Assembly: GCA_050175015.1 (NCBI GenBank)
Contig: JBFXJJ010000006.1
Coordinates: forward strand, 32,001 to 96,000
Length of the DNA stretch: 64,000 bases
DNA from: Alphaproteobacteria bacterium
GTDB lineage: Bacteria; Pseudomonadota; Alphaproteobacteria; JBFXJJ01
Direction: 5' to 3'
Part shown: positions 12,996 through 64,000 of the stretch, piece by piece
Numbering within the stretch: the first letter of the stretch is position 1
Layout of the letters: each line of letters begins with the position of its first letter
Translations under genes and position numbers: made by a program
Notes under the pieces: model-generated
Seen by the model: only the letters and a program-made list of their open reading frames with translations
Databases searched by the model: none
What the model was told of the DNA's origin: nothing

Positions 12996-13072
12996 CGGAG
13001 CGTGGCGCAGCCTGGTAGCGTACTAGCATGGGGCGCTAGGGGTCGGAGGTTCAAATCCTCTCGCTCCGACCA
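12996..13072 (+). tRNA. tRNA-Pro (GGG)
   Basis: Cloverleaf CGGAGCG/CGCTCCG, anticodon arm CTAGC-ATGGGGC-GCTAG, GGTTCAAATCC, CCA end. Confidence 0.97.
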
Positions 13073-19255: not shown

Positions 19256-21075
19256 TATATCCTTGTTATGGTTATAGTCAAACAGCCATCACAACCTGCT
19301 CAGAATTACAGGCGATAAACAACAACTTATCAGGTAGTTACTATCTTGCCAACGATATTGATTGCAGTGCGACATCAAGCTGGAACAGCGGTGCTGGTTT
19401 CGTACCTATCGGAAATGCATCGACCCCATTTGCAGGAACTTTTGATGGTAAGAGTTTAACCATAAAAGGACTATACATAAGCAGAGCGGGAATAAACCAA
19501 ATTGGCTTATTTGGGGAAACTAATAGTGCTACAATAAAAGATGTTACGTTGGATAGTATCAACATCACAGGGGGAAGCCGAACCGGCGGTTTAGTTGGAA
19601 GGACTGGAGGTACAACCTCCATAAAAAACTGTGGCACAAAAGGTTATGTTTATGGGCGTGCCGATTACTGCTGTATCGGAGGACTTGTTGGAGGTGCTTA
19701 CGGCAATTTTACTATTGCTAATAGTTATTCTCACGCAGCTGTCAACACTAATGTTTCTTGGTCTGGTGGGCTGGTTGGAGATCACTATACAGGAAAGATA
19801 ATTAATAGCTATGCCACGGGTTCTGTCGTTGGTTGTTCCGCAAGATGCGGGGGACTATCTGGACAACTTGTGAATAGTGGCTCAATAATAAATAGTTTTT
19901 CAACAGGTTCGCTATCAGGCTGTTCATCTTATTGTGGCGGTTTGTTTGGAATATATTATTCTGGGACATCTTCTGGCAATTATTGGGATTATCAAACATC
20001 AGGAATGGCCACCAGTGCAGGAGGAACAGGCAAAACTACAGCCCAAATGCAAACACAAAGCACTTTTGCAGGCTGGGATTTTGAAAATGATTGGTGTATG
20101 CCGGAAGGTGATTATCCACGGTTAAAATTTGAAGATGCTTGTTCCTTGCCAACTTGTACAGGTTGTGCGGTTTTAAGCGGCAGAGAATGTGTTGCTGGCG
20201 ACAGTTGTTCAGGCGAACACCCAAATTGTGTTGTAACTGATAATGATGGCATTTGTGAATGTTCAGCATCTAGCTGTAATGCGGGACGCAGCTGCTCTAC
20301 TGCGGGAATATGCTCTGACTGTGATAATTCTGAGGGGTGTGGCTCTTGTACTTGTGGAACCTCACAAAAGCCGACAGGAACAGGCGCCTGTATAAATGAC
20401 AGCTCGTGCTGTGTTGGTGAATGCAATATGGCAACTGGTGCTAATTTTTGCAGTTACAGTGATGACTTATGCTCCTCAGGAATAGCGTGCAACCGTTCAA
20501 CATTATCTTGCTGTGCTTCCTCCCTTCCTTATTGGCGAAGCAGCGACTGCAAACCTTGTGCCGCCACTAGTGGTTTGTCTGGAACGTGCCAAACTAAGGG
20601 CATGATGTGCAACTCGAATTATGATTGCGTAAGCTGTTTGGCTAATATGCAATGCACCTGTGATGATGGCTTTGTTTCTGATGGTGCTGGCGGCTGTATC
20701 GAGCCTTTATGCTACACCGACAGTGAATGCGGAACCGATAAATGTATCAATGCTGGAGACTACGACGCTTTCTGCTCAAACTGCAGTTCTATCAATAAGG
20801 TCTGGGTTTCAGGATCTTGCGAAAGCTGTCCAAGTGGTTCGACGTATCATAATGGTATTTGTTTATGCTCTGATGGCAAAATGTGGAATTCTGCAAGCAA
20901 TACCTGCTCTAAAAAAAGCGTAATTTCAAGCCACGGGGTTATTGATACCAAGAGTAAGGCAACCGCCATAACACCAGAGAGCCGCTATGACCGCATTAAG
21001 CGCAAAATGAATCGCATCACGAACAGCGCCTATGCAGGAGTAGCTGATAAAGAAGAATTGGAAGAATTAGAATAA
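19255..21075 (+). pseudogene. 5'-truncated GLUG-repeat plus Cys-rich extracellular protein
   Basis: Frame open from 19255 (AITTCSELQAINNNLSGSYYLANDIDC..GTFDG..GGLVG repeats) with no ATG/GTG/TTG before 19549 and no signal peptide; about 40 Cys in the C-terminal half. Confidence 0.7.
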
Positions 21076-27543: not shown

Positions 27544-29580
27544 TTATGACAAATCTTCATCTGAACCGATATTAATTCCAAATTTAGGCAGAATCTTTTT
27601 ATGAATAATAATTATTAACCAAGCCGTTAATCCTGCGGCTCCAAAAACCTTTACCGTTCCCATAAGACTGTTCAATGTTTCTGGGGAGAATATCATAAAT
27701 ATCGCAAGGAATGCCATAACTAAACCACCGATCAATTTTAAAACACGTCCGTGTTTTTCCTCAAAGCGGTTAGTCTTCAATGTGATAACAGCACTTATAA
27801 TAAGCACAAGCTCATCAAGGAGATAAATAAAAATGTATATTACAAATAAACACGCAAAATACATACCATGAACATTATTCCTAGCTAAAAGATTAGCCCA
27901 AATTACAGGAAAACCAGCTGTACAAGGCAATTCGACTAAAACTACCCCCAAAGCAAGAAGAGATGTCGCTGTAATCATAGCAAATGTCGACTTATCCGGT
28001 TTTATAATATTTCTCATATCTTTAAATATCCCAGGCTTATGCTTATCTGAGATTGTAAAAGAAAGTCCCTTTTTAAACCAAAAATAATCCTTAATGTTAA
28101 CAACTGCAAACAACAACGCTAACATAGCTATCGAGATTTGAATCCATTCAATATATCCTACATAGGCAAAGACATTAAGAATGCCAAGCATAAAAGCTCC
28201 GTAAGCCGCAGCGGTTACTGAAAGGAATGTCAAAGATACCATTAAAACTTTTTTACGAGATCTCGTATGAATAACCATACCTAGAAGAAACATTATAAGC
28301 CACGTCGAACATGGATTAAAACCATCAACAAAAGCTATAATCGAAGTAGTAATAATTATAGGAGAATCTGCTAAATTAACTTCACCGAAAAATGGTAATG
28401 TAATCGAACGATCCTCATCTGGCGTAATTTCTTTTGCTCTCGGAATAATTGGCGTTGAACCCAAAACATTCTCGGCTGGACAATGACAATCTTTTTTCAA
28501 ACAAACATCAACTGTTTTTTCCAAATTATCTTTTATTGAACGTTCACCTACAAAATATTTAGAACCAACAAAAACAACAGGATAGGAAACTTGTGTTAAA
28601 CCATATTTTTCCTTGAATAAATCAAATAAGGCATTTTCATTTTCTTCATAAACATTGTGACGATAAATCTCAACATATTTATTAGTTTCAAGATTAGATA
28701 AGAAATCTTGAATACGAATACAATGAGGGCAGTCAGGTCTATAGAAAAGATGGATACAAAGCTTTCTATCATCAATTAGCCCTGCTTTAACTGCGGGGTT
28801 AACGCAAGTATCACCAAGGCACTCTTGAACTCTTGAGGTGATTTCGCCTTTCATATCTTCAGTAAAACCAAAAATTGGAGACTTATCACCAATAAAAAAA
28901 GCAGGAACACCTAAAGGTTTAACATTGTATGCACTAGATATATCTTGAAAAATTTTGGCGCCTTCTTGGTTCTTCCAAGTTTCATAAGAATGGATCTCAA
29001 ACGATGGATATTGCTTTTTAAGTTCTTCCAAAAAGGGCTTAGCCTCTGCACAATGAGGACAGCCATCACCCCAGAAAAAATACATTATAGCCTTGTGCAA
29101 ACCACCATATAAATTATCTTCGAAAACCCCCTCTGCTTCTGCAACAGATGTTTCAACAACTTTTGTCTTTTCTTGTGCAGTGTATAATCTATCTAAAGGA
29201 TTAGGACAGCCTTCATTTAAGCATTTTTCAATTTTTTCAAAAAACTTAGGTTGCATCAACTGAGTATAGCCAAAGATAGGCCTCTCATCTCCAATAAAAA
29301 AGGCTGGAACACCAGAAGGCTTAACTCCATACTTAGCCGCTAAATTTTGAAACAATTTAGCATTATCACTATTTTCCCAAGTTTCATAAGCATGAACTTT
29401 AAGCTCAGGATACCTTGCTTCCAGATCTCCTAAAAAAGGTTTAGCTTCAGCGCAATGCGGGCAACCGTCACCCCAAAAAAACAGTAAATCTACTTGCTTG
29501 TTTGTTTCTTCTGCTTTCAAGCTTGATGTAGAAAAAACAAACGACATAAAAACAGTTAACAATATTGCGATTTTTTTCAT
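27544..29580 (-). CDS. Three CPHC thioredoxin/glutaredoxin domains fused to a CcdA/DsbD-like membrane domain
   Basis: Signal peptide; FFWGDGCPHC x2 and FYRPDCPHC; TM region with DGFNPC and VELPC. Confidence 0.85.
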   Translation of the reverse strand: MKKIAILLTVFMSFVFSTSSLKAEETNKQVDLLFFWGDGCPHCAEAKPFLGDLEARYPELKVHAYETWENSDNAKLFQNLAAKYGVKPSGVPAFFIGDERPIFGYTQLMQPKFFEKIEKCLNEGCPNPLDRLYTAQEKTKVVETSVAEAEGVFEDNLYGGLHKAIMYFFWGDGCPHCAEAKPFLEELKKQYPSFEIHSYETWKNQEGAKIFQDISSAYNVKPLGVPAFFIGDKSPIFGFTEDMKGEITSRVQECLGDTCVNPAVKAGLIDDRKLCIHLFYRPDCPHCIRIQDFLSNLETNKYVEIYRHNVYEENENALFDLFKEKYGLTQVSYPVVFVGSKYFVGERSIKDNLEKTVDVCLKKDCHCPAENVLGSTPIIPRAKEITPDEDRSITLPFFGEVNLADSPIIITTSIIAFVDGFNPCSTWLIMFLLGMVIHTRSRKKVLMVSLTFLSVTAAAYGAFMLGILNVFAYVGYIEWIQISIAMLALLFAVVNIKDYFWFKKGLSFTISDKHKPGIFKDMRNIIKPDKSTFAMITATSLLALGVVLVELPCTAGFPVIWANLLARNNVHGMYFACLFVIYIFIYLLDELVLIISAVITLKTNRFEEKHGRVLKLIGGLVMAFLAIFMIFSPETLNSLMGTVKVFGAAGLTAWLIIIIHKKILPKFGINIGSDEDLS

Positions 29581-29681
29581 CTTTTTCTCTCTAAAATTTT
29601 GTTTTAGATTTCGTCTTTATTTTAAACTAATTTTTTATAGCAAATATGAAAAATAAATAAAATAATTATTCTCTTTAAATA

Positions 29682-29713
29682 ATTACTGCGCAGTTTTAAG
29701 GCTGCGCAGTAAT
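29682..29713. terminator. Hairpin between the two thioredoxin genes
   Basis: ATTACTGCGCAG-N8-CTGCGCAGTAAT. Confidence 0.6.
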
Positions 29714-29740
29714 CGTATAAAAGCTATTTAAATTTAAATA

Positions 29741-30601
29741 TTATTCAAGTCCAGCTTTAACAGCAGGATTGGTACAGCCATTATCAAAGCATTCTTGGAT
29801 TTTAGATGTAATACTGCCTTTCATTGAATCAGCATAGCCAAAGATAGGGCTGTTATCGCCAATGAAAAAGGCTGGAACACCTCTTGGATCAACACCATAA
29901 GCTGTTGCAAGTTTGCCAAACATTTTGATGCCTTCTTGGTCTTTCCAAGTTTCATAAGCACGAACATCTAAATCTGGGTATTGCTTTTTTAATTCCTCTA
30001 AGAAAGGTTTTGCTTGAGCGCAGTGAGGACAACCATCACCCCAGAAAAAGTACATAACAATTTTTTCTTTTGTGAAAAGTTTTTTCACATAAGATTTTGC
30101 ACTATCAAAAAAAGATCCCTCTTTCTTATCTTCATCTTTTACAGCTTTATAATCATCAGATACTTTAGAAGCATATGAAGAGCCATCACTTTCAAACCCT
30201 TTTGATGCAACTTTATCTAAAGGATTAACACAACCGTCTTTAATGCAAGTTTCAACTTTTTCAATAAAAGCAGGCTGCATTTTTTCGTTATAGCCAAATC
30301 CTGGAATAGAATCACCAATAAAGAATGCAGGAACACCTCTTGCTTCTGCATTATATGCTTTTGCTACCTCTTGGAATAACTGAGCGTTCTGTCTATTCTT
30401 CCAAGTTTCAAAATAATGAACTTTAAGTTCTGGATATTTCTCTTCAAGCTCTTTTACAAAAGGTTTGGCTTCAGCACAATGAGGACAGCCATCACCCCAG
30501 AAAAATAGCAGGTGAGTTTCGTGTTTTTCTTGAGCATAAGAATTAGAAGCAAAGACAATAGAAACCATTGCCAATACTACGCTTGCTAAGATTTTTTTCA
30601 T
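29741..30601 (-). CDS. Secreted tandem CPHC thioredoxin-like protein (two domains)
   Basis: Signal peptide (SYA|Q); FFWGDGCPHC..GVPAFFIGD..C...C.NP twice. Confidence 0.85.
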   Translation of the reverse strand: MKKILASVVLAMVSIVFASNSYAQEKHETHLLFFWGDGCPHCAEAKPFVKELEEKYPELKVHYFETWKNRQNAQLFQEVAKAYNAEARGVPAFFIGDSIPGFGYNEKMQPAFIEKVETCIKDGCVNPLDKVASKGFESDGSSYASKVSDDYKAVKDEDKKEGSFFDSAKSYVKKLFTKEKIVMYFFWGDGCPHCAQAKPFLEELKKQYPDLDVRAYETWKDQEGIKMFGKLATAYGVDPRGVPAFFIGDNSPIFGYADSMKGSITSKIQECFDNGCTNPAVKAGLE

Positions 30602-30641
30602 TATATTATCTCTCTAAATATTTGGGTTTAATATCGTTATT

Positions 30642-31430
30642 TTAAAAATCTGATTTTCCTGTCTTTAATATCGGATATTGTTCTTTCAAATCCTTTATTA
30701 TAGCAAGATCTTCAGGCTCAGTGTAAGAGCAACCATTTTTCTTGCCGCCACAACCGCCTTTTTTGCCCAATCCGGCAGCAGGACAAGTTCCACGGACTGC
30801 TGCAACTTCTTGTTTATCAGATGTTTTAGATACATCTTCTTGTCCCTGAATCATTGAAGCCCCTTGCTCAGGAACTACACCTTCTGGTGTAGAGAAAATA
30901 CATATTCCTTCTTTAGTTCTTGTTGCCCCTTTAGGACAAACCTCATCTCCCATAGGAGGTTTTTCTGTAGGATATTCATTATCAATCCATTTTGAGATTC
31001 CATCTTTTAGCCAAAAGACATTGCCTAAACCAATTTCCCAATCCGCTATTTGTTTTAAAGCTTTAGAACTCCTTGCTCCATCATCACAGTAAAAGACAAC
31101 TGAACTATGATTTTTCAGAACAGCTTCAACCATAGCTTGGGTCAGACTATTATTTTTTTCGTCTTCATCGCCAAAAGGCATATTTAAAGCCCCGACAATG
31201 TGTTTTTCACCAAAAAATTCAGGAGATCTATTGTCAACGAAAACGACATTTGCTGTCTTAAATAATTCAAACGCTTTCTCGGTATTAATAATATTGGCAT
31301 CACCAATAATCTTTGCTACACCTTTTACATCTACGGAAGAAGCGAGATTACTTGGTTTATAAAAAACATATGCTGCAACAACAATAACAACGGCTACAGC
31401 AATAGTTATAATAAGCTTTAGATTTTTCAT
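30642..31430 (-). CDS. Membrane-anchored rhodanese-domain protein with Cys-rich tail
   Basis: N-terminal TM, FVDNRS..HIVGALN, VVFYCDDGARS, LKDGISKW; RBS AGAGGG before 31430. Confidence 0.8.
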   Translation of the reverse strand: MKNLKLIITIAVAVVIVVAAYVFYKPSNLASSVDVKGVAKIIGDANIINTEKAFELFKTANVVFVDNRSPEFFGEKHIVGALNMPFGDEDEKNNSLTQAMVEAVLKNHSSVVFYCDDGARSSKALKQIADWEIGLGNVFWLKDGISKWIDNEYPTEKPPMGDEVCPKGATRTKEGICIFSTPEGVVPEQGASMIQGQEDVSKTSDKQEVAAVRGTCPAAGLGKKGGCGGKKNGCSYTEPEDLAIIKDLKEQYPILKTGKSDF

Positions 31431-31535
31431 GTAACCCTCTCTTGTTTGGCATAATAACCAAACATTAACATTTGTCAACCACGCTATTTATGCTTTATTT
31501 TTTTGCTTTTAATATTTTTTAAACATAACTCAAAA

Positions 31536-32597
31536 TTACTCTCTACGCCATCTTTTTTCTGCATTAATAGACATTCCTTTTCCTTGACCAACTTCCCTGC
31601 CTATCAATTTTATTCTCATTGCCATACAAGACTTACATTCTTCTGCTGTTTCATCAATACAAGCTTTGGCTGGATATATTTCATAAAGCTTACGATACTT
31701 TATTGGCGTTAAATTCGGCATTAAGACATTGGCTCCAGACATTAAACCTCGCTCCCGCCCCTTTGCTTTGTTAAGCGTTGCTATAGCTGTGGTGCTTGGA
31801 ATATTGGTGTATGGGCATAAAATTCTAGTAAGAGCTATAACCTTATATGCCATATATTCTGTATTCGGCACCTGTTCTTCACCATCAAGAAAAGGGATAA
31901 TCCCTTTGCCTAAAGGCGTGTCTTGGTGCGGAATAAAAGGCCCAACCCCTATCATATCTAAATCAAGTTCTTTAAATTTTAAAATATCTTCCGCCAAACT
32001 TTCATAGGTTTGCGTTGGAATGCCTATCATAACTCCGCTTCCAACTTCATACTTTAAGTCTCTTAACTGCTTTAAAATCGCAAATCTATCACATTTTTTA
32101 TTTTTCAATGGTGGGTGAATTTTATAAAACAGCTCTTTATTAGATGTTTCAAATCTTAAGAGATAGCGATCAGCCCCTGCTAATCTCCAAGCATTAAGCT
32201 CTTCATATGACCTTTCTCCCAAAGAAAGCGTTACCGCCAAATCTGTTTTTTCTTTTATTCTTTTAATGATGCTTGTTACCATATCTGCGGTAACATTAAA
32301 ATCTTCTCCAGACTGCAAAACAACCGAACCATAACCATAAGAATCTGCCTCAACGGCACATTCAACAATCTCATCTTCTGTCATACGATAACGAGGAGTT
32401 TCTGTGCGTTCGGCTCTAAGTCCGCAATAAAGACAATTTCGATAACAACAATTCGAGAACTCTATAAGCCCTCTTAAATGAATTTCATCACCGACACATT
32501 CTTTGCGAATATTGTCCGCCTCTTCAAAAAGTTCTTTCAGCTTATTTTCATCTGTTTCTTTAAGCCAAGAAGTAATTTGTTCTTTATTTAGTTCCAT
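31536..32597 (-). CDS. hydE: [FeFe]-hydrogenase H-cluster radical SAM maturase HydE
   Basis: CYRNCLYC, VVLQSGED, GPFIPHQDTPLG, GANVLMPNLTP..YEIYPAK; next to hydF. Confidence 0.92.
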   Translation of the reverse strand: MELNKEQITSWLKETDENKLKELFEEADNIRKECVGDEIHLRGLIEFSNCCYRNCLYCGLRAERTETPRYRMTEDEIVECAVEADSYGYGSVVLQSGEDFNVTADMVTSIIKRIKEKTDLAVTLSLGERSYEELNAWRLAGADRYLLRFETSNKELFYKIHPPLKNKKCDRFAILKQLRDLKYEVGSGVMIGIPTQTYESLAEDILKFKELDLDMIGVGPFIPHQDTPLGKGIIPFLDGEEQVPNTEYMAYKVIALTRILCPYTNIPSTTAIATLNKAKGRERGLMSGANVLMPNLTPIKYRKLYEIYPAKACIDETAEECKSCMAMRIKLIGREVGQGKGMSINAEKRWRRE

Positions 32598-33098: not shown

Positions 33099-34487
33099 AT
33101 GAGAAAAGAACAAGATGCCCTAGGAACAAGAGAACTTGAAGATGATGTTCTTTTTGGAATTCACACTTTAAGAGCTAGTGAAAATTTTGCTGTTTCCAGC
33201 TATGTTATGCCTAAAGTTTTTATCGACGCTTTTACTATGGTTAAAGAAGCTGCGGCAACGACCTCGTTATCGCTAAAAATGCTGGAAGAAAACAAGGCTT
33301 ATGCAATCATAAATGCTTGTCATAAGATTAGGAATGGCGAAGCTTTAAATTACTTGGTAACAGATGCCTTGCAAGGAGGTGCTGGAACTTCAACCAATAT
33401 GAACTTCAACGAAGTTATCGCCAATCTTGCGATAATAGAACTTGGCGGAACCGCTGGCGATTATTCTGTTATCAGCCCGCTTGATGACGTTAACCGCTTT
33501 CAGTCAACCAATGATGTCTATCCAACGGCGTTAAAAGTTGCCTCTCTTCTTTTATTGAAACAACTAGAAAACTCCTCAGCTATTTTACAAGAAGAGCTAC
33601 AAAAAAAAGAACAAGAATTTAAAAATGTTATAAAGGTTGGACGCACAGAATTTCAAGATGCGGTTCCAATGACCTTAGGTATGGAGTTTGGAGCTTTTGC
33701 CGACGCTCTATCACGGGATCGCTGGCGGATTTTTAAATGCCGTGAACGAATCAAACAGGTAAACTTAGGAGGAACAGCGATAGGAACAGGACTTGCAGCG
33801 CCTAGAGAATATATTTTCAAAGTAGTAGAAAACTTGCGCAGTATTTCTGGTCTGGCACTATCCCGTTCAGAAAATCTAATTGATGCAACGGCAAATTCGG
33901 ATAGTTTTGTAGAAGTTTCAGGAATGCTAAAAGCTTTTGCCGCTAATCTTTTTAAAATAGCAAGTGATTTAAGAGTTTTATCCAGCAGCCAGTATGCAGA
34001 AATAACTCTGCCTGCCGTACAGGCGGGATCATCAATTATGCCGTCAAAAATAAACCCTGTTATCCCTGAAATGGTTTCGCAAATTGCACTAAAAATTATG
34101 GCTAACGATAGCCTAATCGCTCAAGCGGCATCTTTGGGAAATATGCAGATTAATCAGTTTATGCCTCTTATTGCCCAAGCTCTTTTAGAATCTCTTGAAC
34201 TGCTTAACAATGCATCTTTAATTTTTGCAGAAAAATGCATTAAAGGAATTACGGCAAATGGTGAAAAATGCCTAACTAATTTTGAAAAAAGCTTTACTCT
34301 GGCTACCGTTTTGGTTCCCATTTTAGGATACAACAAGGTTTCTGAAATTGTAAAAGCTGCAAAATTAAATCAATGCACCATTAAAGAACAACTGCTTCAG
34401 GAAAAGCTTCTTTCTGCAACTGAAATTGATGAATTAATGTCTGCTCAAAATATGTATAAATTAGGATTTGAAAAAAAATATGAATAA
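33099..34487 (+). CDS. aspA: Aspartate ammonia-lyase (fumarase/aspartase family)
   Basis: QGGAGTSTNMN, QSTNDVYPTA, GRTEFQDAVP, GSSIMPSKINPVIPE. Confidence 0.9.
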   Translation: MRKEQDALGTRELEDDVLFGIHTLRASENFAVSSYVMPKVFIDAFTMVKEAAATTSLSLKMLEENKAYAIINACHKIRNGEALNYLVTDALQGGAGTSTNMNFNEVIANLAIIELGGTAGDYSVISPLDDVNRFQSTNDVYPTALKVASLLLLKQLENSSAILQEELQKKEQEFKNVIKVGRTEFQDAVPMTLGMEFGAFADALSRDRWRIFKCRERIKQVNLGGTAIGTGLAAPREYIFKVVENLRSISGLALSRSENLIDATANSDSFVEVSGMLKAFAANLFKIASDLRVLSSSQYAEITLPAVQAGSSIMPSKINPVIPEMVSQIALKIMANDSLIAQAASLGNMQINQFMPLIAQALLESLELLNNASLIFAEKCIKGITANGEKCLTNFEKSFTLATVLVPILGYNKVSEIVKAAKLNQCTIKEQLLQEKLLSATEIDELMSAQNMYKLGFEKKYE

Positions 34488-35709
34488 GCCAAAAGATAAC
34501 GGTGGAGCAGAAGGCGCCGCCAGAGGAATGAGAACGATTATAACCCTTGTTGGACGCAGAAACGCAGGAAAATCATCTTTGATAAATGCTTTGTGTAATC
34601 AAGAGGTCGCCATTGTTTCTGATATAGCAGGAACAACCACAGACCCCGTAGCCAAAGCTTATGAGTTGCTTCCCCTTGGTCCTGTAACTTTTTATGACAC
34701 AGCAGGAATTGACGACGAAGGAGAAATCGGAAAATTAAGAGTATCTGCAACCAAAAAAGTGTTATGTAGAACCGATATTGCCTTAATGGTAATTAATGAA
34801 CGCGGCATTAAAAAGGAAGAAGAAGATTTAGTAAACGAATTAAAAAAACTTGATATTCCATTCATAATTGTTTTCAACAAATGTGATTTAACATCACCAT
34901 CACAATCTGACATTAAATTCTGCCAAAGCAATGCCATAAACTTTGCTGAAGTATCGGCTAAAAATTATGCTAATATTGACGACCTAAAAGCCAAAATTAT
35001 TGCAACCCTTCCTAAGGATATGATGGCAGAACCCAGCCTTGCCGCCGATCTTATTAAAGAAGGCGATTTTGTTTTATGTATCACTCCGATTGATTTGGCT
35101 GCGCCTAAAGGCAGGCTTATTCTGCCGCAAGTCCAACTGATTAGGGAAATATTAGATTCTGATGCCATTGCCGTTGTTTCTAAAGAAAGAGAAATTGAAG
35201 CGGCGTTATCCAATTTCGGACGAAAACCAAATCTTGTGGTAACAGATTCTCAAGTCGTTTTAAAAGTTGCAGGCGATGTCCCTGATGATATACCACTTAC
35301 AACTTTTTCTATTCTATTTGCTAGATTTAAAGGCGATTTAAAGCTTTTAGTCGATGGAGCGAGAGCGATTGATAAGCTGCAAAATGGGGATAAAGTATTA
35401 ATTGGTGAAGCTTGTTCACATCATAATCAAGCTGATGATATTGGGCGGGTAAAAATCCCAAGATGGCTGACGCAATATACAGGGAAAGATCTTCATTTTG
35501 ACATTTTCTCGGGACACGACTTCCCTGAAAACCTAGAGGATTACAAGTTGGTTATTCATTGCGGAGCCTGTATGATAAATCGCAAAGAAATGGTAAGAAG
35601 GATTGTGGAATGCAACCGCAGAGGAGTTCCAATAACTAATTATGGCGTTTGCATTTCAAAGGTTCAAGGTGTTTTAGAACGTGTGATTAAACCTTTTATT
35701 GGAATTTAA
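34480..35709 (+). CDS. hydF: [FeFe]-hydrogenase maturation GTPase HydF
   Basis: GRRNAGKSS, DTAG, NKCD, APKGRLILPQ, EACSHH, HCGAC, TNYG. Confidence 0.97.
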   Translation: MNKPKDNGGAEGAARGMRTIITLVGRRNAGKSSLINALCNQEVAIVSDIAGTTTDPVAKAYELLPLGPVTFYDTAGIDDEGEIGKLRVSATKKVLCRTDIALMVINERGIKKEEEDLVNELKKLDIPFIIVFNKCDLTSPSQSDIKFCQSNAINFAEVSAKNYANIDDLKAKIIATLPKDMMAEPSLAADLIKEGDFVLCITPIDLAAPKGRLILPQVQLIREILDSDAIAVVSKEREIEAALSNFGRKPNLVVTDSQVVLKVAGDVPDDIPLTTFSILFARFKGDLKLLVDGARAIDKLQNGDKVLIGEACSHHNQADDIGRVKIPRWLTQYTGKDLHFDIFSGHDFPENLEDYKLVIHCGACMINRKEMVRRIVECNRRGVPITNYGVCISKVQGVLERVIKPFIGI

Positions 35710-35765: not shown

Positions 35766-35841
35766 GTCCCCTTCGTCTAGGGGCCTAGGACGCTGGCCTC
35801 TCACGCCGGTAACAGGGGTTCGAATCCCCTAGGGGACGCCA
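35766..35841 (+). tRNA. tRNA-Glu (CTC)
   Basis: GTCCCCT/GGGGAC acceptor, anticodon arm CTGGC-CTCTCAC-GCCGG, GGTTCGAATCC, CCA. Confidence 0.96.
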
Positions 35842-48193: not shown

Positions 48194-48679
48194 ATGGCAC
48201 ACGCTATTGAAAATAAAATTAGAGAATTGGGTCTAGCACTGCCCGAACCTCCTGTTTCTGTTGCCAGTTATGAACCATATAGTATAACTGGAAAGCTCGT
48301 ATTTATTTCTGGTCAGCTTCCTATAATTAATGGGCAAGCAAAATTTAAAGGGAAAGTCGGAAAACCTTTGACTATTGAGGAAGGTGCTTTAGCCGCTAAA
48401 CTCTGCACTTTAAATATGTTGGCACATCTGCAAAACGCTTGCCGTACTATCTACCCTAAACAAGGGCTTAACAGCGTGACTAAAGTTGTAAAGATTGAAG
48501 GTTATGTTAACTCTATGCCTGGTTTTGAAGATCAACCTAAAATCATAAACGGCGCTTCAGACTTAATTGTTTCTATTTTTGGTAAAAAAATTGGCTCTCA
48601 TAGCAGGATAGCTGTTGGAGTTACATCTCTGCCTTTAGATATGCCAGTTGAAATTTCTGGAATTTTTGAGATTGAGTAA
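48194..48679 (+). CDS. RidA family protein
   Basis: FISGQLP, NGASDL, HSRIAVGVTSLP..PVEI. Confidence 0.9.
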   Translation: MAHAIENKIRELGLALPEPPVSVASYEPYSITGKLVFISGQLPIINGQAKFKGKVGKPLTIEEGALAAKLCTLNMLAHLQNACRTIYPKQGLNSVTKVVKIEGYVNSMPGFEDQPKIINGASDLIVSIFGKKIGSHSRIAVGVTSLPLDMPVEISGIFEIE

Positions 48680-50847
48680 TGGCATTTAAGCTAAAATCTT
48701 TTATATTTATGGTCTTATTTTTTTTGGTTTTTATTGCCAAAACTTCTAACAGCCAAAATTTTAAGGAATTTGGCGTTCCTGAATTATCAATCCCTACTTA
48801 TGATGATGAGCAAAACAAACAAACAACTGATGATGAAGAAAAAAATCAGGAGCAAGCAAATTCTGACACAGACGAAACATCTATAAAGGCCTCTGATAAC
48901 CAAGAAAAATCAGCTAACTCTTCTGAACAAAAAGACAATCAAGATGCAGAAAATTCTTCAGATGAAGAAACTGAACCTGAAGAACTTACAATATATCTTC
49001 CCCCAAACAACACCGAAACTAGCATTCCCAATTTTGAACACGTCCCATATTTTTTCAGTAATATTCAGCTTCTCCCTGATGGCTCGGCACAAGTAACTGA
49101 AACCATTAAATTTGTGGTCAAGGGCAATATTATAAAAAATGGCATTAGCAGGCTATTTCCTAAAATAACCTATAATAGAATGAATCAACCAATTAAAGGC
49201 GATATTGAAATCGTTGCTGTTTATCTCGATGGCGTTGAGGAACCTTTCAAAATAAAAAAAACCAAACAAGGACTGCTGCTTATTACTGGGAATTCTAAAA
49301 CTCCTTTAAAAAACGGAGTTCATACCTACGAGATATCTTATGCTGCTTATCGCCAAATCAGTATGTACAACAAATTTGATGAATTTTTTTGGAATGTAAC
49401 TGGGGCAAATTGGAATTTGGGAATATCTAGAGTGGGGGCAAGAATTCAGCTTCCTATGGGCGCCCGTATGCTAAACCGTAAAGCTTTCGTCGTTCTAAAA
49501 GACAAAGAAACTAACGATTATATTGCCTTTAATGACAGTGAAAACAATGTAATATTTGGTACAACCAAAGCTCTTGGAATAGGTGAAGGCTTTGTTGTCT
49601 TAGTATCTTGGCCAAAAGGATTTGTCTTCGAACCCGATATTAATCAAAAGATAACCTACTTCTTAAAAGACAATGGAGATGCGGTAATAAGTTTCTGCGG
49701 TTTTATTATAATATTTTTCTCTTATTTTATGTCTTGGCTTTTCTTTAAGCAAAAAAACAAACCTAAAAATTTAAAAGTTACCAAAAAGCTACCTCAAAAC
49801 ATCAATTCTGCTATCTTAAGATTTTTAGCCAACGGTTATTTTGATGCTAAGAGCTTTGTTACTTGCCTTCTTTTTATGGCACATAAAAATTGCTTAATAA
49901 TAGAAGAAAAAGAAGAAAAAACTTTCAGTCTCATTAAACGTGGAGAAAAAAACAGACTGCTGTCAAAAAGTGAGTTAACTTTACTAGAAATCTTATTTCC
50001 AAACAAAAAAACCATTTTAGAAATAAACAACAAAAATGCTCTTTTAGTTAGAAATGCAATGACTGAATTGTTTTCTTCTTTTCAAAATGAAAACAAAAAA
50101 CTAATCTTTGAGCAAAACAAATCCTACCTTTTCTTAAGCCTTTCAATGTTTATGATTGCTTTTTCAGCAATATCAATATTGTCAATTCAACCTCTTTATA
50201 CTTTTATTATATCACTATCTCTAAGCTTCCTAACATTAGTAACATCTTTTTTGCTTTTTTCTCTTTTCCCGATTTTCTTGCACAATAATGATGACTCCCT
50301 TAAAAATAGGAAATCTAGCATTGATGACATTCTAACTACAAACAAAGATCATCTTATTAAAAAAATTATTCTTTTTATCACGATGATAATTTTTGGACTT
50401 GGCAGTTATGTTGGAGCTTTGCTTTATATGGAGTCAACTTCTTTGCTCGCCACCTTATTCTTTGTCTTAACATCTTTTACGATAAGCTTTTTCTACGGCC
50501 TCTTTAAAAATAAAGACGTCCTAGGAACAACGTTAACCAATACCATTCTAGGATACGGCAAATATCTGAAAAATGATGGTAACGTTACCCCTCCTCTAAC
50601 CAAAGATATTGCATCTAAAAATATAAATTTATTCAATATCCATCTACCTTGTGCCGTAGCTCTTGATGATGAAGAGATATGGTGTAAAAAGTTTATGCCT
50701 AAAAATGACGTTGATTTTAAAGACTTGAGCTACAAACCTAGCTGGTATTCTGGTACGAAACAATTCAACTTAGAAGGTCTTGATAAAGATTTATCTAATT
50801 TGATTCTAGACTTAACCAAAAATATTTCCATAATTTCAGGCATTTAG
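48679..50847 (+). CDS. DUF2207 (YciQ-like) membrane protein
   Basis: DGSAQVTETI, NGISR, DEFFWNVTG.NW, VSWPKG, LP.AVALD, PSWY. Confidence 0.75.
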   Translation: MAFKLKSFIFMVLFFLVFIAKTSNSQNFKEFGVPELSIPTYDDEQNKQTTDDEEKNQEQANSDTDETSIKASDNQEKSANSSEQKDNQDAENSSDEETEPEELTIYLPPNNTETSIPNFEHVPYFFSNIQLLPDGSAQVTETIKFVVKGNIIKNGISRLFPKITYNRMNQPIKGDIEIVAVYLDGVEEPFKIKKTKQGLLLITGNSKTPLKNGVHTYEISYAAYRQISMYNKFDEFFWNVTGANWNLGISRVGARIQLPMGARMLNRKAFVVLKDKETNDYIAFNDSENNVIFGTTKALGIGEGFVVLVSWPKGFVFEPDINQKITYFLKDNGDAVISFCGFIIIFFSYFMSWLFFKQKNKPKNLKVTKKLPQNINSAILRFLANGYFDAKSFVTCLLFMAHKNCLIIEEKEEKTFSLIKRGEKNRLLSKSELTLLEILFPNKKTILEINNKNALLVRNAMTELFSSFQNENKKLIFEQNKSYLFLSLSMFMIAFSAISILSIQPLYTFIISLSLSFLTLVTSFLLFSLFPIFLHNNDDSLKNRKSSIDDILTTNKDHLIKKIILFITMIIFGLGSYVGALLYMESTSLLATLFFVLTSFTISFFYGLFKNKDVLGTTLTNTILGYGKYLKNDGNVTPPLTKDIASKNINLFNIHLPCAVALDDEEIWCKKFMPKNDVDFKDLSYKPSWYSGTKQFNLEGLDKDLSNLILDLTKNISIISGI

Positions 50848-59087: not shown

Positions 59088-60743
59088 TCAAATCCTTATA
59101 ACGTGAACATTAATTAACGGTTTTTTTCCGCAAATAGCCGTAAAAGAATGCCTTACTGCCAGCCTTAAAGTTTCTGATACTTTGCCATCATCGAGCTTGT
59201 CTTCTTTTAGCATTTTAGCTAAAGATTTTTGGGCATCTCCTATTATTTTCTGTAAAATATCGGGACTTTCAATATCCTCCAGTAAATCTGGAGCTGAAAT
59301 TTGGATATTGCCTTTAACGTTGCCTTTTTTATCAATGGCAACAGATACTACAGCCGAAGAATTCCACATAATTTTGCGCCGCATCTTGATAAGATTAGAA
59401 TCTAAAGAAACCAAACGATTGCCATCTAAAACTAAAATCCCGACATCAAACTCGTCAATCACGCTGGCATCATCGTCTTCAAATTTGATAACCTGACCAT
59501 TGTTAACCCTTAAAGCTTTATCAACACCAAGACTTAAGGCAAGTTTTTCATGTTCAATTAAATGTATGGGCTCACCATGTATTGGAATTGCGATTTTAGG
59601 TTTTAGAAAGCCATACATTTTCCTTATTTCTTCTTTGGGAGGATGTCCTGAAACGTGAACAAGCTCATCTTTGCCTGTGATAATTTCTATTTTCTTTTCT
59701 GCTAAAATATTTTGGAGTTTCAAAATAGATTTTTCATTGCCAGGAATAACCCTTGAAGAGAAAATTACGACATCACCTTCGTCGAGATAAATATGCTTAT
59801 GATTATCTGACGCTATCCTTAACAAAGCCGAACCCGTTTCACCCTGACTGCCTGTACAGATATATAAAATTTCATTCTCAGGCAAAAAACCTGCTTCGCT
59901 TTCCGTTAAAAAATTAACCCCGTCTAAATAACCAACAGCTTTAGCGGCATCTTCAACTTTCCATAAAGACCGCCCAACCAGACAAACTTGGCGTCCGTTG
60001 GCTTTAGCTGCCCAAGCTATGCTCTCTATTCGAGCAACGTTTGAAGAGAAACACGCAACAGCTATTCTCTTTTTAAATTTTGAAAAAAGTGTAACTAGGC
60101 TGTTTCTTACTTCTGATTCTGATTTTGATTTGCCCTCAACTAAAACATTGGTAGAATCGCAAACAAAAGCTAAAACGCCTTCTTTGCCTACAGATTTAAG
60201 CGTTTTATAATCACTCTCTTCCCCAATCAAAGGATCTGTATCAAATTTCCAATCACCGCTATGAACAATATTGCCGTAAGGCGTTTTGATAAACAACGCA
60301 TTTGCCTCTGGAATAGAATGCGTTACAGAAATAAACCTTATTTCAAAAGGTCCTAAATTGATGGTACTGTTTAACGGCAGAACATCAACATCTACTCTTC
60401 CTAAAAGCCCCGTTTCGTCAAGTCTTGGTTCCAGCATTTCGGCGGCAAACGGTGTTGCATAAACCGGAAATTTTATCTTTGACCATAAATGAGCAATAGC
60501 TCCAATATGATCTTCATGAGCATGGGTAACAACTACACCTAAAAAATCTTTTCTGCGTTCTTCAATAAAAGTAGGATCGACCATCATAATATCTATGCCA
60601 GGAAAATCATCTCCCGCAAAGCCTATCCCCATATCAACGGCTATCCATTTATTGTCACAGCCGTATAGATATAAGTTCATACCAATTTCGCCAACTCCAC
60701 CCAAGGGAATAAAATAAAGTCCTTTATCGTATTTTTTATCCAT
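59088..60743 (-). CDS. rnj: Ribonuclease J
   Basis: PLGGVGEIGMN, THAHEDHIGA, HSIPE, GSQGE, HVSGH, HGE. Confidence 0.97.
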   Translation of the reverse strand: MDKKYDKGLYFIPLGGVGEIGMNLYLYGCDNKWIAVDMGIGFAGDDFPGIDIMMVDPTFIEERRKDFLGVVVTHAHEDHIGAIAHLWSKIKFPVYATPFAAEMLEPRLDETGLLGRVDVDVLPLNSTINLGPFEIRFISVTHSIPEANALFIKTPYGNIVHSGDWKFDTDPLIGEESDYKTLKSVGKEGVLAFVCDSTNVLVEGKSKSESEVRNSLVTLFSKFKKRIAVACFSSNVARIESIAWAAKANGRQVCLVGRSLWKVEDAAKAVGYLDGVNFLTESEAGFLPENEILYICTGSQGETGSALLRIASDNHKHIYLDEGDVVIFSSRVIPGNEKSILKLQNILAEKKIEIITGKDELVHVSGHPPKEEIRKMYGFLKPKIAIPIHGEPIHLIEHEKLALSLGVDKALRVNNGQVIKFEDDDASVIDEFDVGILVLDGNRLVSLDSNLIKMRRKIMWNSSAVVSVAIDKKGNVKGNIQISAPDLLEDIESPDILQKIIGDAQKSLAKMLKEDKLDDGKVSETLRLAVRHSFTAICGKKPLINVHVIRI

Positions 60744-60762: not shown

Positions 60763-61551
60763 TTAGTCTTTATTAAAGAAAACTTCTCCTGAGTTTATTC
60801 TTTGTCTCTGTCCATATTCATTAATAAATAAAATTGCTCCATCTTGATCTATATCTTCAAATTTTCCCTTTAGGGTTTCTTTTGGCAGTCTAATTACAAT
60901 ATCTTGACCTAAACCATAGGCATTTTCTAGCCAATCTTGTCTTATACCACTAAATCCCTCAATTTTCCAAAAATTAAACATCTCCAAAAATTTTTCTAAA
61001 AAAAGTTCTAGCAGCTTCTCATTTTCAATACTTATACCACAATCAGATAAAGATGTTGCTTTAATAGCACCGTCAACATCATCTGGGTGATTTTTGTTAT
61101 TAACACCCATTCCGATAATAACAAAATCATTTAAGCTCGTACCTGTTGTTTCTATTAATATGCCTGACACTTTGCAATAATCAGATGTTATTACGTCATT
61201 TGGCCATTTACATAAGAACTTTGATTTACCTGTTAACTCGTTAAGGACTTTTGTTAAAGCTAAAGATACAACAAAACTTAATTGCCCCATAACAAAAGCT
61301 TCAGAACTGAATTTTAATATCATTGAAAGATATAAATTTCCTTGGGGACTATGCCATAAACGTCCTCTTCGCCCTTTGCCGCTTTTTTGAATTTTTGAGA
61401 CGACAATCGTTCCCTCTGGTGCGCCATTTGCTGCTAAATCCCTAGCATAATCATTAGTGCTACCAACTTCATCTAATCTAATTATATTCCAAAAAACGCT
61501 GTTTTTATCCAAAGGATGCCACCTAAAACAAAACAGTTCCTTAATAAACAA
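60763..61551 (-). CDS. birA: Biotin--protein ligase (no HTH domain)
   Basis: GSTND, Q..GKGRRGR.W.SP, KWPND, KVSGILIE; start uncertain. Confidence 0.95.
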   Translation of the reverse strand: MFIKELFCFRWHPLDKNSVFWNIIRLDEVGSTNDYARDLAANGAPEGTIVVSKIQKSGKGRRGRLWHSPQGNLYLSMILKFSSEAFVMGQLSFVVSLALTKVLNELTGKSKFLCKWPNDVITSDYCKVSGILIETTGTSLNDFVIIGMGVNNKNHPDDVDGAIKATSLSDCGISIENEKLLELFLEKFLEMFNFWKIEGFSGIRQDWLENAYGLGQDIVIRLPKETLKGKFEDIDQDGAILFINEYGQRQRINSGEVFFNKD

Positions 61552-61554
61552 CCA

Positions 61555-62964
61555 CTAATTGGGCAATAAAAATGGATACGCACAAACAAGCAGCATTACA
61601 AAAAAACTACAAATCATAACAATACTATTATATAACCCTATATTATCAAATTTTTCATCTGTTTTTTTAAAATAAACAACATCTATAATTCTGATAAAGC
61701 TTAGCAGCATTAAAACAAGGGAAATAACTACACATACAATTAGCCAGTATATTTTGGTTTTCAATAATATCATTAGCAGATGAAAAATACCGTAAAAGCC
61801 AGCTAAAGCTGGAACGCCCGATAAAGACATCATAAAACAAACAAGGACAATAGCCCCAAACGGATGAGAAGAAGCAAAACCTTTAACATCTGCAATATTT
61901 TCAATTAGATTTCCATTTTTTCTTAAGGATAAAACAATTGAGAAAATACCAACGATGCTAATACTGTAAGATGTTACAAGAAATACTACAGCAGACAAAT
62001 CATTTTCTTTGATGCCGATGAATGATGCCCATATATAACCACTATAAACCATAGAACAATATGCCATCATTCTTTTTATGTTTGTTTGAGAAATCATAGC
62101 TATGGAACCTAGAAGCATTGACGCCGCAGCAAAAAACATTAATACAGGCATAAGCTGCGGCCATAAAGGCAAAAAGACATCTTTGATTAAACGAAGCAAC
62201 ACGACAAAATAGGCGATCTTCGGTGTTGACAATAAAAATGATGTTACTGGTGTTGGAGCGCCTTCCGCAATATTAATACTGCCAAAGTTGAACATCGCCA
62301 TATCACATTTAAATAATAAACTGGCAATAACCATAAAAAAACCAGCCATAAGCAAGGCATTGTTTCCGTTCTTTGAAACATACTCCGATACGATTTTAAA
62401 CCCCATACCACCTGTTGTTCCATAAATAAAAGAAACACCGTACAAATAAAATATTGCAACCACTAAACCTATGGCTAAAAATCTTGTTCCCATAATTGTT
62501 GAACGAGTTGCCCTTCTTTTAAAGGCAACCATCAAATACATCGGAAGCATAGAAAGCTCTAACCCCAAATAAAGGGTTATAAATCCTTTTGCAGAGATTG
62601 CTATCATCATTCCAGCTATCGAGAAAATTAAGAAAAAAGGATATTCATAACGCTTAAATTTTTTCAAAATAAGCCATTCATTGGCTAAGAAAATATTAGC
62701 CAAACCACAAAATAGAATTAATATCTTAAAATAAAGTGTTAGCTTATCATTAACTAAAAATGCCTCTAAATTATAATTAGACATATTGAAAAGAGAGAAT
62801 GTTAGAAATAAAGCACCCAATATAATGACTATTGATGATTTTAGAGCCGTATGATGAGAAATTCCGTGCCTAAATGCCCCCAAAACCAACATCACTACAG
62901 GAGCCATCAACAACAAAATTTCAGTTGTTACAAAACCAAATATATTATGAATTAAACTTATCAT
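61555..62964 (-). CDS. nuoN: NADH-quinone oxidoreductase subunit N (divergent)
   Basis: LYLGLEL, YGTTG, EGAPTPVT, NIKRMMAY, SLSGVP..AGF; nuoN-birA-rnj synteny. Confidence 0.85.
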   Translation of the reverse strand: MISLIHNIFGFVTTEILLLMAPVVMLVLGAFRHGISHHTALKSSIVIILGALFLTFSLFNMSNYNLEAFLVNDKLTLYFKILILFCGLANIFLANEWLILKKFKRYEYPFFLIFSIAGMMIAISAKGFITLYLGLELSMLPMYLMVAFKRRATRSTIMGTRFLAIGLVVAIFYLYGVSFIYGTTGGMGFKIVSEYVSKNGNNALLMAGFFMVIASLLFKCDMAMFNFGSINIAEGAPTPVTSFLLSTPKIAYFVVLLRLIKDVFLPLWPQLMPVLMFFAAASMLLGSIAMISQTNIKRMMAYCSMVYSGYIWASFIGIKENDLSAVVFLVTSYSISIVGIFSIVLSLRKNGNLIENIADVKGFASSHPFGAIVLVCFMMSLSGVPALAGFYGIFHLLMILLKTKIYWLIVCVVISLVLMLLSFIRIIDVVYFKKTDEKFDNIGLYNSIVMICSFFVMLLVCAYPFLLPN

Positions 62965-62969
62965 AAGCT

Positions 62970-64000
62970 TTACCCTAACTCCGCAATAACTTGATTGGCA
63001 AAACTAAAAATTACAGCAAAAATTTTAGTTTGAAAAACAGCAAGAATAATGGTTGCTGCAATTAATGATAAAAAAGTTAGATAGTCTTTTTTATATCCTA
63101 TTTTGCTATTAGCAATATTGCGATTTTTTGCAAGCACGCTGATTGACGAGAAGAAAATAGCAACAACCGCAATTATCATAAAAACAATATCTTTCTTCAT
63201 TAGCTCTGAAATCATTATAATAAAACCAGAGAATACCGCAAAAGGAGGAAAAACAATAATTACAGGCAAAATTAAAAATTTTAAAACATCTAATATGCTT
63301 TTTTCATTATCCAAGATTTCCTCAAATTCAAATTGCAGCATCATCAAGGGAAAACAAAAAGCAATAAAGATAAAAATTACCGATGCCATCAAAAGTGCAT
63401 CAAATGAAAACAATCCGATTGTAACTATTCCCAAATAAATTCCAAAAAGATAGCTTAAAAATCTAAACGTATTCCGCTCTAAAACAACACATATAGAGCA
63501 ATATACCGTAGTAATAGAAGCCATAATTACTATAATATTGCCATATTCAACACAAACTTTAGGCAACAGCGGCATCACAAAGTGCAAAACCACATAAACA
63601 AAGCTCATAATTTGACAAGTAAGGAAAAATGATGCCACAGGAGCCTCTAGTTTCCTTAAAAAACCAGCCAGCCAAAAATGATTAGGAACAAAGCCTAGTC
63701 TCAAAAATAGCGAAGCTGCTATTAAAATAAACGTCAGCCTATTTATGTTACAATCTCCTGTTTCCTTATTAAAAAGGTAGCAGACAACCGCCGTTAAAAA
63801 TAAAAAAGAAGATAACAATAAATTAAGAACAGGCCACTTTTCTTTGGTGTTGTCCTCTTCTTCCATATTTATTCGACTTATAAAAATGAAAGGAATTGGA
63901 AGTATGAAGAAAAACACATTAAAAAGCATAATATTCAAAGATGAAAACATACCGTTACCAATGGCTGTGGCCAAAAGTATACTAACAATATATTCTTTGT
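62970..64000 (-). CDS. nuoM: NADH-quinone oxidoreductase subunit M-like (highly divergent; 5' end off window)
   Basis: Frame open to the window edge: KEYIVSILL...G.F..L...LF.VFF....IP aligns with NuoM TM4-5; P.H.WL; directly upstream of nuoN. Confidence 0.7.
   Translation of the reverse strand, partial: KEYIVSILLATAIGNGMFSSLNIMLFNVFFFILPIPFIFISRINMEEEDNTKEKWPVLNLLLSSFLFLTAVVCYLFNKETGDCNINRLTFILIAASLFLRLGFVPNHFWLAGFLRKLEAPVASFFLTCQIMSFVYVVLHFVMPLLPKVCVEYGNIIVIMASITTVYCSICVVLERNTFRFLSYLFGIYLGIVTIGLFSFDALLMASVIFIFIAFCFPLMMLQFEFEEILDNEKSILDVLKFLILPVIIVFPPFAVFSGFIIMISELMKKDIVFMIIAVVAIFFSSISVLAKNRNIANSKIGYKKDYLTFLSLIAATIILAVFQTKIFAVIFSFANQVIAELG

Follow-up and report, generated by a model that had tools for sequence, protein, structure and literature searches.

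At the end of a 64,000-nucleotide stretch of DNA from an AT-rich, uncultured alphaproteobacterium (contig JBFXJJ010000006.1, positions 32,001 to 96,000; hereafter, the window), we identified an intact nuoM-like gene that lies in the operon position of nuoM, the gene of complex I subunit M. Its product is predicted to keep the antiporter-like fold of NuoM and carries none of the six residues of the protonatable axis (0/6). We favor, with moderate confidence, the interpretation that this gene is the true positional nuoM of the organism and that its product has turned into a proton-inert scaffold. An earlier reading of the window (the sequence-only reading), made from the letters and the translated open reading frames, had proposed a NuoM-like subunit lacking the key proton-pumping residues, and we examined its claims by alignment, comparative genomics, phylogeny and structure prediction.

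It is disputed by what mechanism quinone reduction in complex I drives the pumping of protons at distances of up to 200 Å, and where these protons leave the enzyme. Laboratory point mutants of NuoM/ND4 halt the enzyme instead of uncoupling it. A natural M subunit without its charged axis, facing a NuoN that has lost the adjoining Lys and conserved in two lineages, is a ready-made test case. In a literature search that left most subscription journals uncovered, we found no description of a naturally de-charged NuoM, nor of complex I in hydrogenase-bearing alphaproteobacteria; work on a hydrogenosome-associated Holospora-like symbiont and a Holosporales review likewise contained no information about complex I or hydrogenase.

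An Intact Frame in the Position of nuoM

The nuoM-like gene lies on the minus strand (62970..64000), where the window holds its last 342 codons and the stop, the 5' end lying beyond the window. This open frame (62970..63998; 342 amino acids) runs past the window end. The only stop within its 343 codons is its own terminal stop, compared with 9-38 stops in the other five frames, in line with the intact frame described previously. The 342 amino acids are identical (100%) to residues 88-429 of P0001, a 429 amino acid protein recorded on a single 149,715-bp contig.

Three genes follow on the same minus strand. The start of nuoN (61555..62964; 469 amino acids; PF00361 144 bits; TIGR01770 280.2 bits, cut-off 332.6) is located 5 nt past the TAA of the nuoM-like gene. 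Next comes birA, encoding a biotin-protein ligase (60763..61551; TIGR00121 175.1 bits, cut-off 83.1), which ends the nuo operon as in relatives, followed by rnj, encoding RNase J (59088..60743; TIGR00649 396.7 bits), which served as syntenic anchor and rate control. The closest homologue of RNase J is 52% identical and that of NuoN 35%. For comparison, at least 80 alphaproteobacterial loci were retrieved with an RNase J alignment (39-57% identity), including 53 in which rnj, nuoM and nuoN are all present. The order nuoM-nuoN-birA-rnj is the same as in the window in 53/53 of these loci, and nuoL-nuoM-nuoN upstream of rnj on one strand is the rule among the fetched loci. The window fits on the downstream side (nuoN, birA and rnj), while the upstream nuoL side lies beyond it. 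Since this strand order is shared with alphaproteobacterial loci, the frame is the positional nuoM, and the canonical nuoM-nuoN-birA placement pointed out earlier is upheld. Searching genome contigs for close relatives of P0001 gave 41 pattern matches, none of which was confirmed, and an RNase J scan of genome contigs revealed no close relative among the matches listed.

A Predicted NuoM Fold Without the Protonatable Axis

Profile searches with the 342 amino acids of the window gave 36.4 bits for TIGR01972 (NuoM; cut-off 263.8) and, for the best equivalog, NF004499, 38.1 bits (cut-off 585), and no Pfam family, including PF00361, matched this fragment at E ≤ 0.01. Naming pipelines either call such proteins NuoM without comment or, as in this case, score them far below the cut-off. 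Among solved structures (phmmer against the PDB), the best relatives are plant mitochondrial Nad4 proteins (E = 1.3e-8), with Paracoccus subunit M lower down.

A structure prediction, one of the checks proposed for the sequence-only reading, was performed with AlphaFold2 on a 50-row alignment and yielded a model with a predicted local distance difference test (pLDDT) of 90.6 and a predicted TM-score (pTM) of 0.92, in which the helix breaks of transmembrane helices 7 and 12 (TM7 and TM12) fall at 189-194 and 335-340. In a Foldseek search of the PDB, ranks 1-22 were all subunit M/ND4/NdhD chains (query-normalised TM-score 0.81-0.88); MrpD chains appeared at ranks 23 and 25, and MrpD and NuoL/N ranked below the NuoM chains. 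The NuoM/ND4 antiporter-like fold, with discontinuous TM7 and TM12, is clearly predicted to be kept. We also considered whether the protein could be an MrpD-type subunit of an Mrp complex and rejected this assignment, as the neighbors are nuoN and birA, not mrp genes, and the Glu/Lys pair is absent.

Residues of the canonical subunits are numbered after Escherichia coli NuoM and NuoN (NC_000913.3), whose key positions were confirmed to carry the expected letters; E144/K234 in NuoM and E133/K217 in NuoN have identical numbering in a published study (PMC13073174). Four alignments were compared: a phmmer alignment to PDB Nad4; two made with MAFFT, of which one included 23 library hits and the other E. 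coli NuoM and 55 syntenic alphaproteobacterial NuoM proteins (the relatives referred to below); and one made with hmmalign. The TM5 motif LFYVFFE reads LFNVFFF, with E144 (E in 55/55 relatives) replaced by F118 (codon 63906-63908) in all alignments, and K234 of TM7 (K in 55/55) is R187 (codon 63699-63701). K265 of TM8 (K in 53/55, N in 2/55) corresponds to F220 by MAFFT and to a Ser by hmmalign; a deletion of two residues adjoins this column, and FFLTCQIMSFVYVVLHF lacks Lys altogether. H322 is Y275 and H348 is F301 (both H in 55/55), and E407 of TM12 (E in 55/55) is F346 by MAFFT and a gap by hmmalign. Neither the TM8 segment nor PPFAVFSGFIIMIS, which lies ahead of E352, contains a Lys or Glu. 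E144F, K234R, H322Y and H348F are consistent across the four methods.

The sequence-only reading had listed the loss of Glu144, the change of the TM7 Lys to Arg, and the absence of Lys or Glu in TM8 and TM12. All of these were recovered, none of the four alignments restores a Glu or Lys, and the loss is larger than had been noted, as it extends to H322Y, H348F, K312F, H248K, D246G and D310N. Two of these positions belong to the proton uptake path, namely the junction His (H248) and the uptake Lys (K312) named in section 6 of a recent preprint (10.64898/2026.10.08.757549), which here are K203 and F265, respectively.

Most of the 26 conserved charged or His columns are gone, and R187 and H194 are the only ionisable residues left within the predicted membrane helices; six of the nine charged sites listed have turned into Phe or Tyr. 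H241 in the TM7 break is retained, as are the motifs P-x-H-x-W-L and E-A-P after TM7. Overall, the protein keeps 43/172 of the columns that are conserved in ≥90% of the 55 relatives. It is also about 70 residues shorter than canonical NuoM (429 versus ~500 amino acids), with deletions ahead of TM7, in the TM11-TM12 interval and close to the C-terminus, which agrees with the shortened loops reported before.

Acceleration Is Specific to nuoM and nuoN

To place this divergence in context, identities were compared across the three marker genes. The RNase J of the window has a median identity of 43.8% to those of the 53 relatives, which share 45.8% among themselves. For NuoN the corresponding values are 28.2% and 47.6%, and for NuoM 21.6% and 60.2%. 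Maximum-likelihood path lengths tell the same, with ratios of the window to a typical taxon of 1.12 for RNase J, 2.01 for NuoN and 6.07 for NuoM, and the NuoM/RNase J identity ratio is 0.49 for the window, with no other taxon in the set below 1.06. Since RNase J is near typical while NuoN and NuoM are accelerated, the divergence does not come from genome-wide fast evolution.

Two other uncultured alphaproteobacterial NuoM proteins (L056:5397-6956 and L063:5354-6925) have an Asn at the K265 column. Their NuoM/RNase J identity ratios (1.06 and 1.14) are the lowest after that of the window; the trend seen in the window may be present in them in a milder form.

A Second Lineage Shares the Derived State

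A word-indexed search of 5.8 billion clusters returned a single relative of P0001, the protein P0002, which is also the only other match below E = 1e-30 in an exhaustive phmmer search of 1.84 billion representatives; the next match is 24% identical (E = 9e-19). P0002 is a full-length predicted protein of 452 amino acids, 45% identical to P0001 and encoded on a 4,157-bp contig, and its residues at the six axis positions are F, R, I (S by hmmalign), Y, F and F. Both proteins form a clade with a support of 100, a stem of 2.53 changes per site and tips of 1.29 and 0.70. P0002 keeps 57/172 conserved columns; both proteins have changed at 98/172, and at 57 of these 98 they carry the same new residue. 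Where ionisable residues have been replaced, P0001 and P0002 carry identical residues, mostly Phe or Tyr. Identity between the two proteins is higher in the predicted helices (158/330, 47.9%) than in the rest (35/91, 38.5%).

Our best reading of these comparisons is that the axis was probably lost in the common ancestor of the source organism and that of P0002, and that this state was then kept by selection. No internal stop, frameshift or truncation marks the gene as a pseudogene: over the 343 codons within the window the frame has its own stop only, and the full-length proteins have 429 and 452 amino acids. Because distant lineages have full-length predicted proteins with the same architecture and a new consensus in common, these data seem hard to reconcile with neutral drift.

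Two minor features of this pair should be mentioned. Relative to P0002, P0001 lacks the first 28 residues and with them TM1, which P0002 and canonical NuoM have; this may be a real truncation or a matter of start-codon calling. In addition, E352, found in the motif ISEL and conserved in P0002, was considered as a relocated acid. This candidate was rejected, as the residue stands where TM12b ends, beside MKKD and 6 positions beyond the column of E407, and is judged to be probably surface-exposed.

NuoN Keeps Its Core and Loses Its Terminal Lysine

The neighboring NuoN keeps 52/92 of the columns conserved in ≥90% of 65 relatives. Among the retained residues are E136, K219, K249 and K297 (E133, K217, K247 and K295 in E. 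coli), as well as R296. K395, in contrast, which is K in 64 relatives and R in 1, is replaced by I393 (codon 61786-61788), and E154I, K158R, H224N and D229N are further changes. The eroded NuoN of the sequence-only reading is therefore accurate as regards the lost columns and K395I, but not as regards E133, K217 and K247 of the Glu-Lys-Lys core or the uptake Lys, K295, all of which are kept. K395 is reported to be essential in E. coli NuoN, where K395A cripples the enzyme (PMC13073174). From the architecture of the membrane arm, this residue would lie next to the entry ion pair of NuoM. As judged from the residues, the charged axis appears to be present up to the TM8 Lys of NuoN, capped at the end of NuoN and absent throughout M, a coherent boundary rather than scatter. 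A predicted complex of NuoN and the NuoM-like protein gave scores of 0.17 and 0.22 against a mark of 0.32, which counts neither for nor against binding.

A Proposed Scaffold Role for the De-charged Subunit

The proposal of the sequence-only reading that M (and partly N) is only structural remains the best reading, because the residue loss is real, the gene is the positional nuoM, its frame is intact, the loss is old and shared with P0002, and NuoN has lost K395; the function itself we infer. In this proposal, the fold would be kept while the protonatable axis and the cytoplasmic uptake residues are replaced, mostly by Phe, which would fill and dry the water-lined cavity of M. NuoN, with its Glu-Lys-Lys core, would be deprived of the terminal Lys that passes the signal on to NuoM. 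Because this Lys is lost while the core stays, the charge relay that runs laterally through the membrane arm would end inside NuoN. M itself would be retained for the assembly and stability of the membrane arm. If such a complex is assembled and active, it would pump fewer protons per NADH than the canonical enzyme, or none through the distal arm, and a lower stoichiometry would suit an anaerobic electron-transfer chain of low driving force.

Published precedents suggest that removal of a whole distal module can be tolerated. A Yarrowia lipolytica subcomplex lacking 14 subunits is reported to be active with half of the pumping capacity (PMC3160329), and E. coli preparations without NuoN are described as surpassing either point mutant, K247A or K395A, in activity (PMC13073174). 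In addition, a preprint combining mutants with stoichiometry measurements argues that stoichiometry is adjusted in evolution through the silencing of MrpD-type subunits, proposes silenced ND4 proton uptake in Mycobacterium smegmatis and E. coli, and describes an M. smegmatis ND4 without the uptake triad (10.64898/2026.10.08.757549).

A more specific version, which we hold as tentative and rather doubtful, is that of a working complex I with its relay cut at the N/M boundary, in which NuoN and the E-channel would pump and M, with whatever lies beyond it, would be a sealed, Phe-filled ballast retained for assembly only. If this complex is active and pumping, protons would exit the membrane arm proximal to NuoM, contrary to models with a single exit in NuoL/ND5, and erasure of a whole module would escape the block caused by single-residue mutants. 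Such an enzyme would show how much the proximal modules can at least achieve by themselves and would argue for a variable, evolvable stoichiometry. Together with the degenerate metagenomic proteins described below, it would make up a natural class of enzymes, a "short-stroke" complex I adapted to low-energy anaerobic chains.

Weighing the Alternatives

Several points weigh against a retained scaffold in a functional complex. In Paracoccus, E141Q, K232Q, K263Q or E405Q are each reported to abolish NADH:ubiquinone turnover instead of reducing the stoichiometry, with no uncoupled escape cycle (PMC9802314); by this single-mutant rule, a complex with the M subunit of the window could simply be inactive. 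Models in which protons exit only through ND5/NuoL need the axis through ND4, and a cut there would mean no pumping (10.64898/2026.10.08.757549). With nuoA-L outside the window, as are the genes of quinone synthesis and the oxidases, some subunits of the complex may be missing, or the organism may have another, canonical operon. NuoN itself falls short of the NCBIfam cut-off and lacks H224, D229 and E154. The alignment given to AlphaFold2 was made of canonical NuoM homologues, which favors a canonical fold. Two family members among ~15 billion proteins would also fit a lineage that is losing the gene, and the argument for purifying selection is drawn from intact frames and shared residues, which lean against decay.

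Alternatively, the gene could be a relic in slow decay, in an [FeFe]-hydrogenase fermenter past its need of complex I, with nuoM and nuoN drifting under relaxed selection, as yet without a stop or frameshift, and the complex inactive. The extreme divergence is specific to nuoM and nuoN, both proteins score under the curated cut-offs, the loops are shortened, two family members are known, and hydE, aspA and hydF indicate a hydrogen metabolism; moreover, the known essential residues are all lost, when single losses are reported to kill the Paracoccus enzyme (PMC9802314). A drifting gene, however, is difficult to match with two lineages that are 45% identical and still have full-length predicted proteins of the same architecture, with no internal stop in the window frame, the same new residue in 57/98 doubly changed conserved columns, and helices better conserved than loops. 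The replacements are also non-random, with charged residues turned into Phe or Tyr at 6/9 listed sites, NuoN retains E133, K217, K247 and K295, the predicted fold is confident, and the 5-nt nuoM-nuoN junction is retained. We consider decay unlikely; if the complex is indeed inactive, the window would show how an anaerobe dismantles a large membrane complex, residue chemistry first and fold last.

It could also be that the protein belongs to a specialised second complex, with a canonical nuo operon elsewhere, or that it has a new role in which M docks another partner, as in the NdhD/NdhF subunits of the cyanobacterial CO2-uptake NDH-1. The residue set conserved in P0001 and P0002 could mark a new interface or function, and metagenomes hold other residue-losing NuoM-like proteins (≤4/6 kept in 32/102), some of them perhaps extra copies. 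Yet the gene is found at the ancestral place of nuoM, ahead of nuoN-birA-rnj, and not at a separate locus, the adjoining NuoN is divergent too, so that the whole local operon is altered, no candidate partner gene is found nearby in the window, and the membrane core has no new conserved charged cluster. These observations make a new role distinctly less probable than decay. Least credible of all, to the point of being negligible, is an artefact of alignment or annotation, with the residues displaced or the frame being no gene. An identity of ~22% does leave single columns uncertain, as K265 (F versus S) and E407 (F versus gap) differ between MAFFT and hmmalign, but the four alignment methods concur on E144F, K234R, H322Y and H348F, the TM8 segment and PPFAVFSGFIIMIS before E352 have no Lys or Glu, the frame is open against 9-38 stops elsewhere, and a homologue exists.

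Comparison With Known Systems

The scaffold interpretation can be set against several known systems. With canonical NuoM/Nqo13/ND4, the protein has in common the place in the operon before nuoN-birA-rnj, the predicted antiporter-like fold and the best sequence matches; it differs by its 0/6 axis residues, its lost uptake residues and the ~70 residues that it is shorter by. The silenced ND4 of M. smegmatis and the "[+--]" complex I of E. coli represent a natural switch-off in an antiporter-like subunit, and the uptake Lys and junction His are lost in the window protein too. The preprint proposes that silencing adapts the stoichiometry to quinones of low potential and to an anaerobic lifestyle, and what is lost in those two enzymes is, in its description, the uptake path only (10.64898/2026.10.08.757549), whereas in the window the axis, as known from sequence, is erased in M and capped in N, a far more drastic alteration. 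The Y. lipolytica subcomplex resembles the functional picture proposed here in having its distal module out of play, although there the subunits are physically absent after a laboratory deletion (PMC3160329), while the M subunit of the window would be present but chemically inert.

Ech, FHL and MBH-type enzymes are related to complex I and have a short arm with only one antiporter-like subunit. The window's complex may follow the same logic, with one active antiporter-like module by the quinone/E-channel part and a low-energy reaction. There is no kinship beyond the superfamily. The gene comes from a canonical nuo operon of the 14-gene type, and within the window it has no linked hydrogenase subunit. 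The sequence-only reading had raised the possibility of an undescribed intermediate form that links complex I with anaerobic energy-converting complexes, a view that our data do not support: because the synteny is standard and the gene sits with P0002 on a long derived branch (stem 2.5, support 100), the change is late and derived, a degeneration of canonical complex I and not a link to Ech/MBH-type enzymes.

Other Degenerate NuoM-Like Proteins

An exhaustive search listed 150 proteins, 102 of which have residues at all six axis columns; it should be noted that the query biases this list toward such proteins. All six residues are kept in 52 of the 102, four or fewer in 32 and none in 4 (P0002, P0136, P0148 and P0199). 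P0136, P0148 and P0199 are thus like the window protein in that all six residues are gone, but unlike it in sharing few derived residues: at 76 conserved columns, the other degenerate proteins share 0-6 derived residues with P0001, compared with 17 for P0002. With so few derived residues in common, they are probably independent cases, suggesting that the loss occurred several times. Some of these proteins carry the NuoM label in metagenome-assembled genomes of Pseudomonadota, and a cluster look-up of ten of them gave nearly no names. NuoM-like proteins without key residues are, in this list, not rare among uncultured bacteria.

Genomic Context of the Window

The hydrogenase maturation genes reported by the sequence-only reading are present, with scores above the curated cut-offs. 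hydE, encoding an [FeFe]-hydrogenase maturase, lies on the minus strand (31536..32597; TIGR03956 338.5 bits, cut-off 254.6), and hydF on the plus strand (34468-35709; TIGR03918 573.4 bits, cut-off 325.55). The start of hydF is overlapped by 20 nt (34468-34487) by aspA (33099-34487, plus strand; NF008909 584.2 bits, cut-off 510). hydE and hydF are located 27-31 kb from nuo and unlinked to it, and neither hydA nor hydG was found within the window. The ferredoxin/H2-linked electron transfer that the sequence-only reading considered suitable gains no support from these genes. An [FeFe]-hydrogenase is likely, and hence an anaerobic habit. We had considered aspA as a hint of fumarate respiration and dropped this idea, since ammonia-lyase genes are reported to be strongly associated with hyd operons, as known companions of the maturase genes (PMC11736057), an association that aspA fits better than a respiratory role.

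On the minus strand, hydE is followed by a gene for a rhodanese-domain protein (30642-31478) and by two genes whose products consist of repeated thioredoxin/glutaredoxin-like domains (29741-30601, 286 amino acids; 27544-29580, 678 amino acids). Together (27544-32597), these genes may form an operon for sulfur or thiol handling that is connected with the hydrogenase maturase.

The window has a G+C content of 30-41% and also encodes, among other products, FlgE, lipopolysaccharide and peptidoglycan enzymes, GlgC, FzlA and TrkH, along with the housekeeping genes proS, lolCDE, dnaE, pheST and thrS. This is not the genome of a minimal symbiont. Two large proteins have no NCBIfam name, a 508 amino acid GLUG-motif protein (19549-21075) and a 722 amino acid DUF2207 membrane protein (48679-50847).

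In the RNase J tree, the window falls within a supported set of 16 rows that includes Rhodospirillales (5), Acetobacterales (3), Holosporales (1), Rickettsiales (1) and others, and the closest relatives by RNase J are no nearer than 49-52% identity among the matches listed. Three loci are titled Solirubrobacterales (L057), uncultured Bordetella (L009) and uncultured Thiotrichales (L069), yet carry an RNase J of alphaproteobacterial type; nuoM-nuoN is visible upstream of rnj in L009, and L057 is among the rows nearest to the window in the tree. These bins are probably mislabelled or mixed.

Finally, the only tRNA genes of the window, tRNA-Pro(GGG) and tRNA-Glu(CTC), at 12996-13072 and 35766-35841, both have anticodons that read G/C-ending codons, which is slightly unexpected at ~35% G+C.

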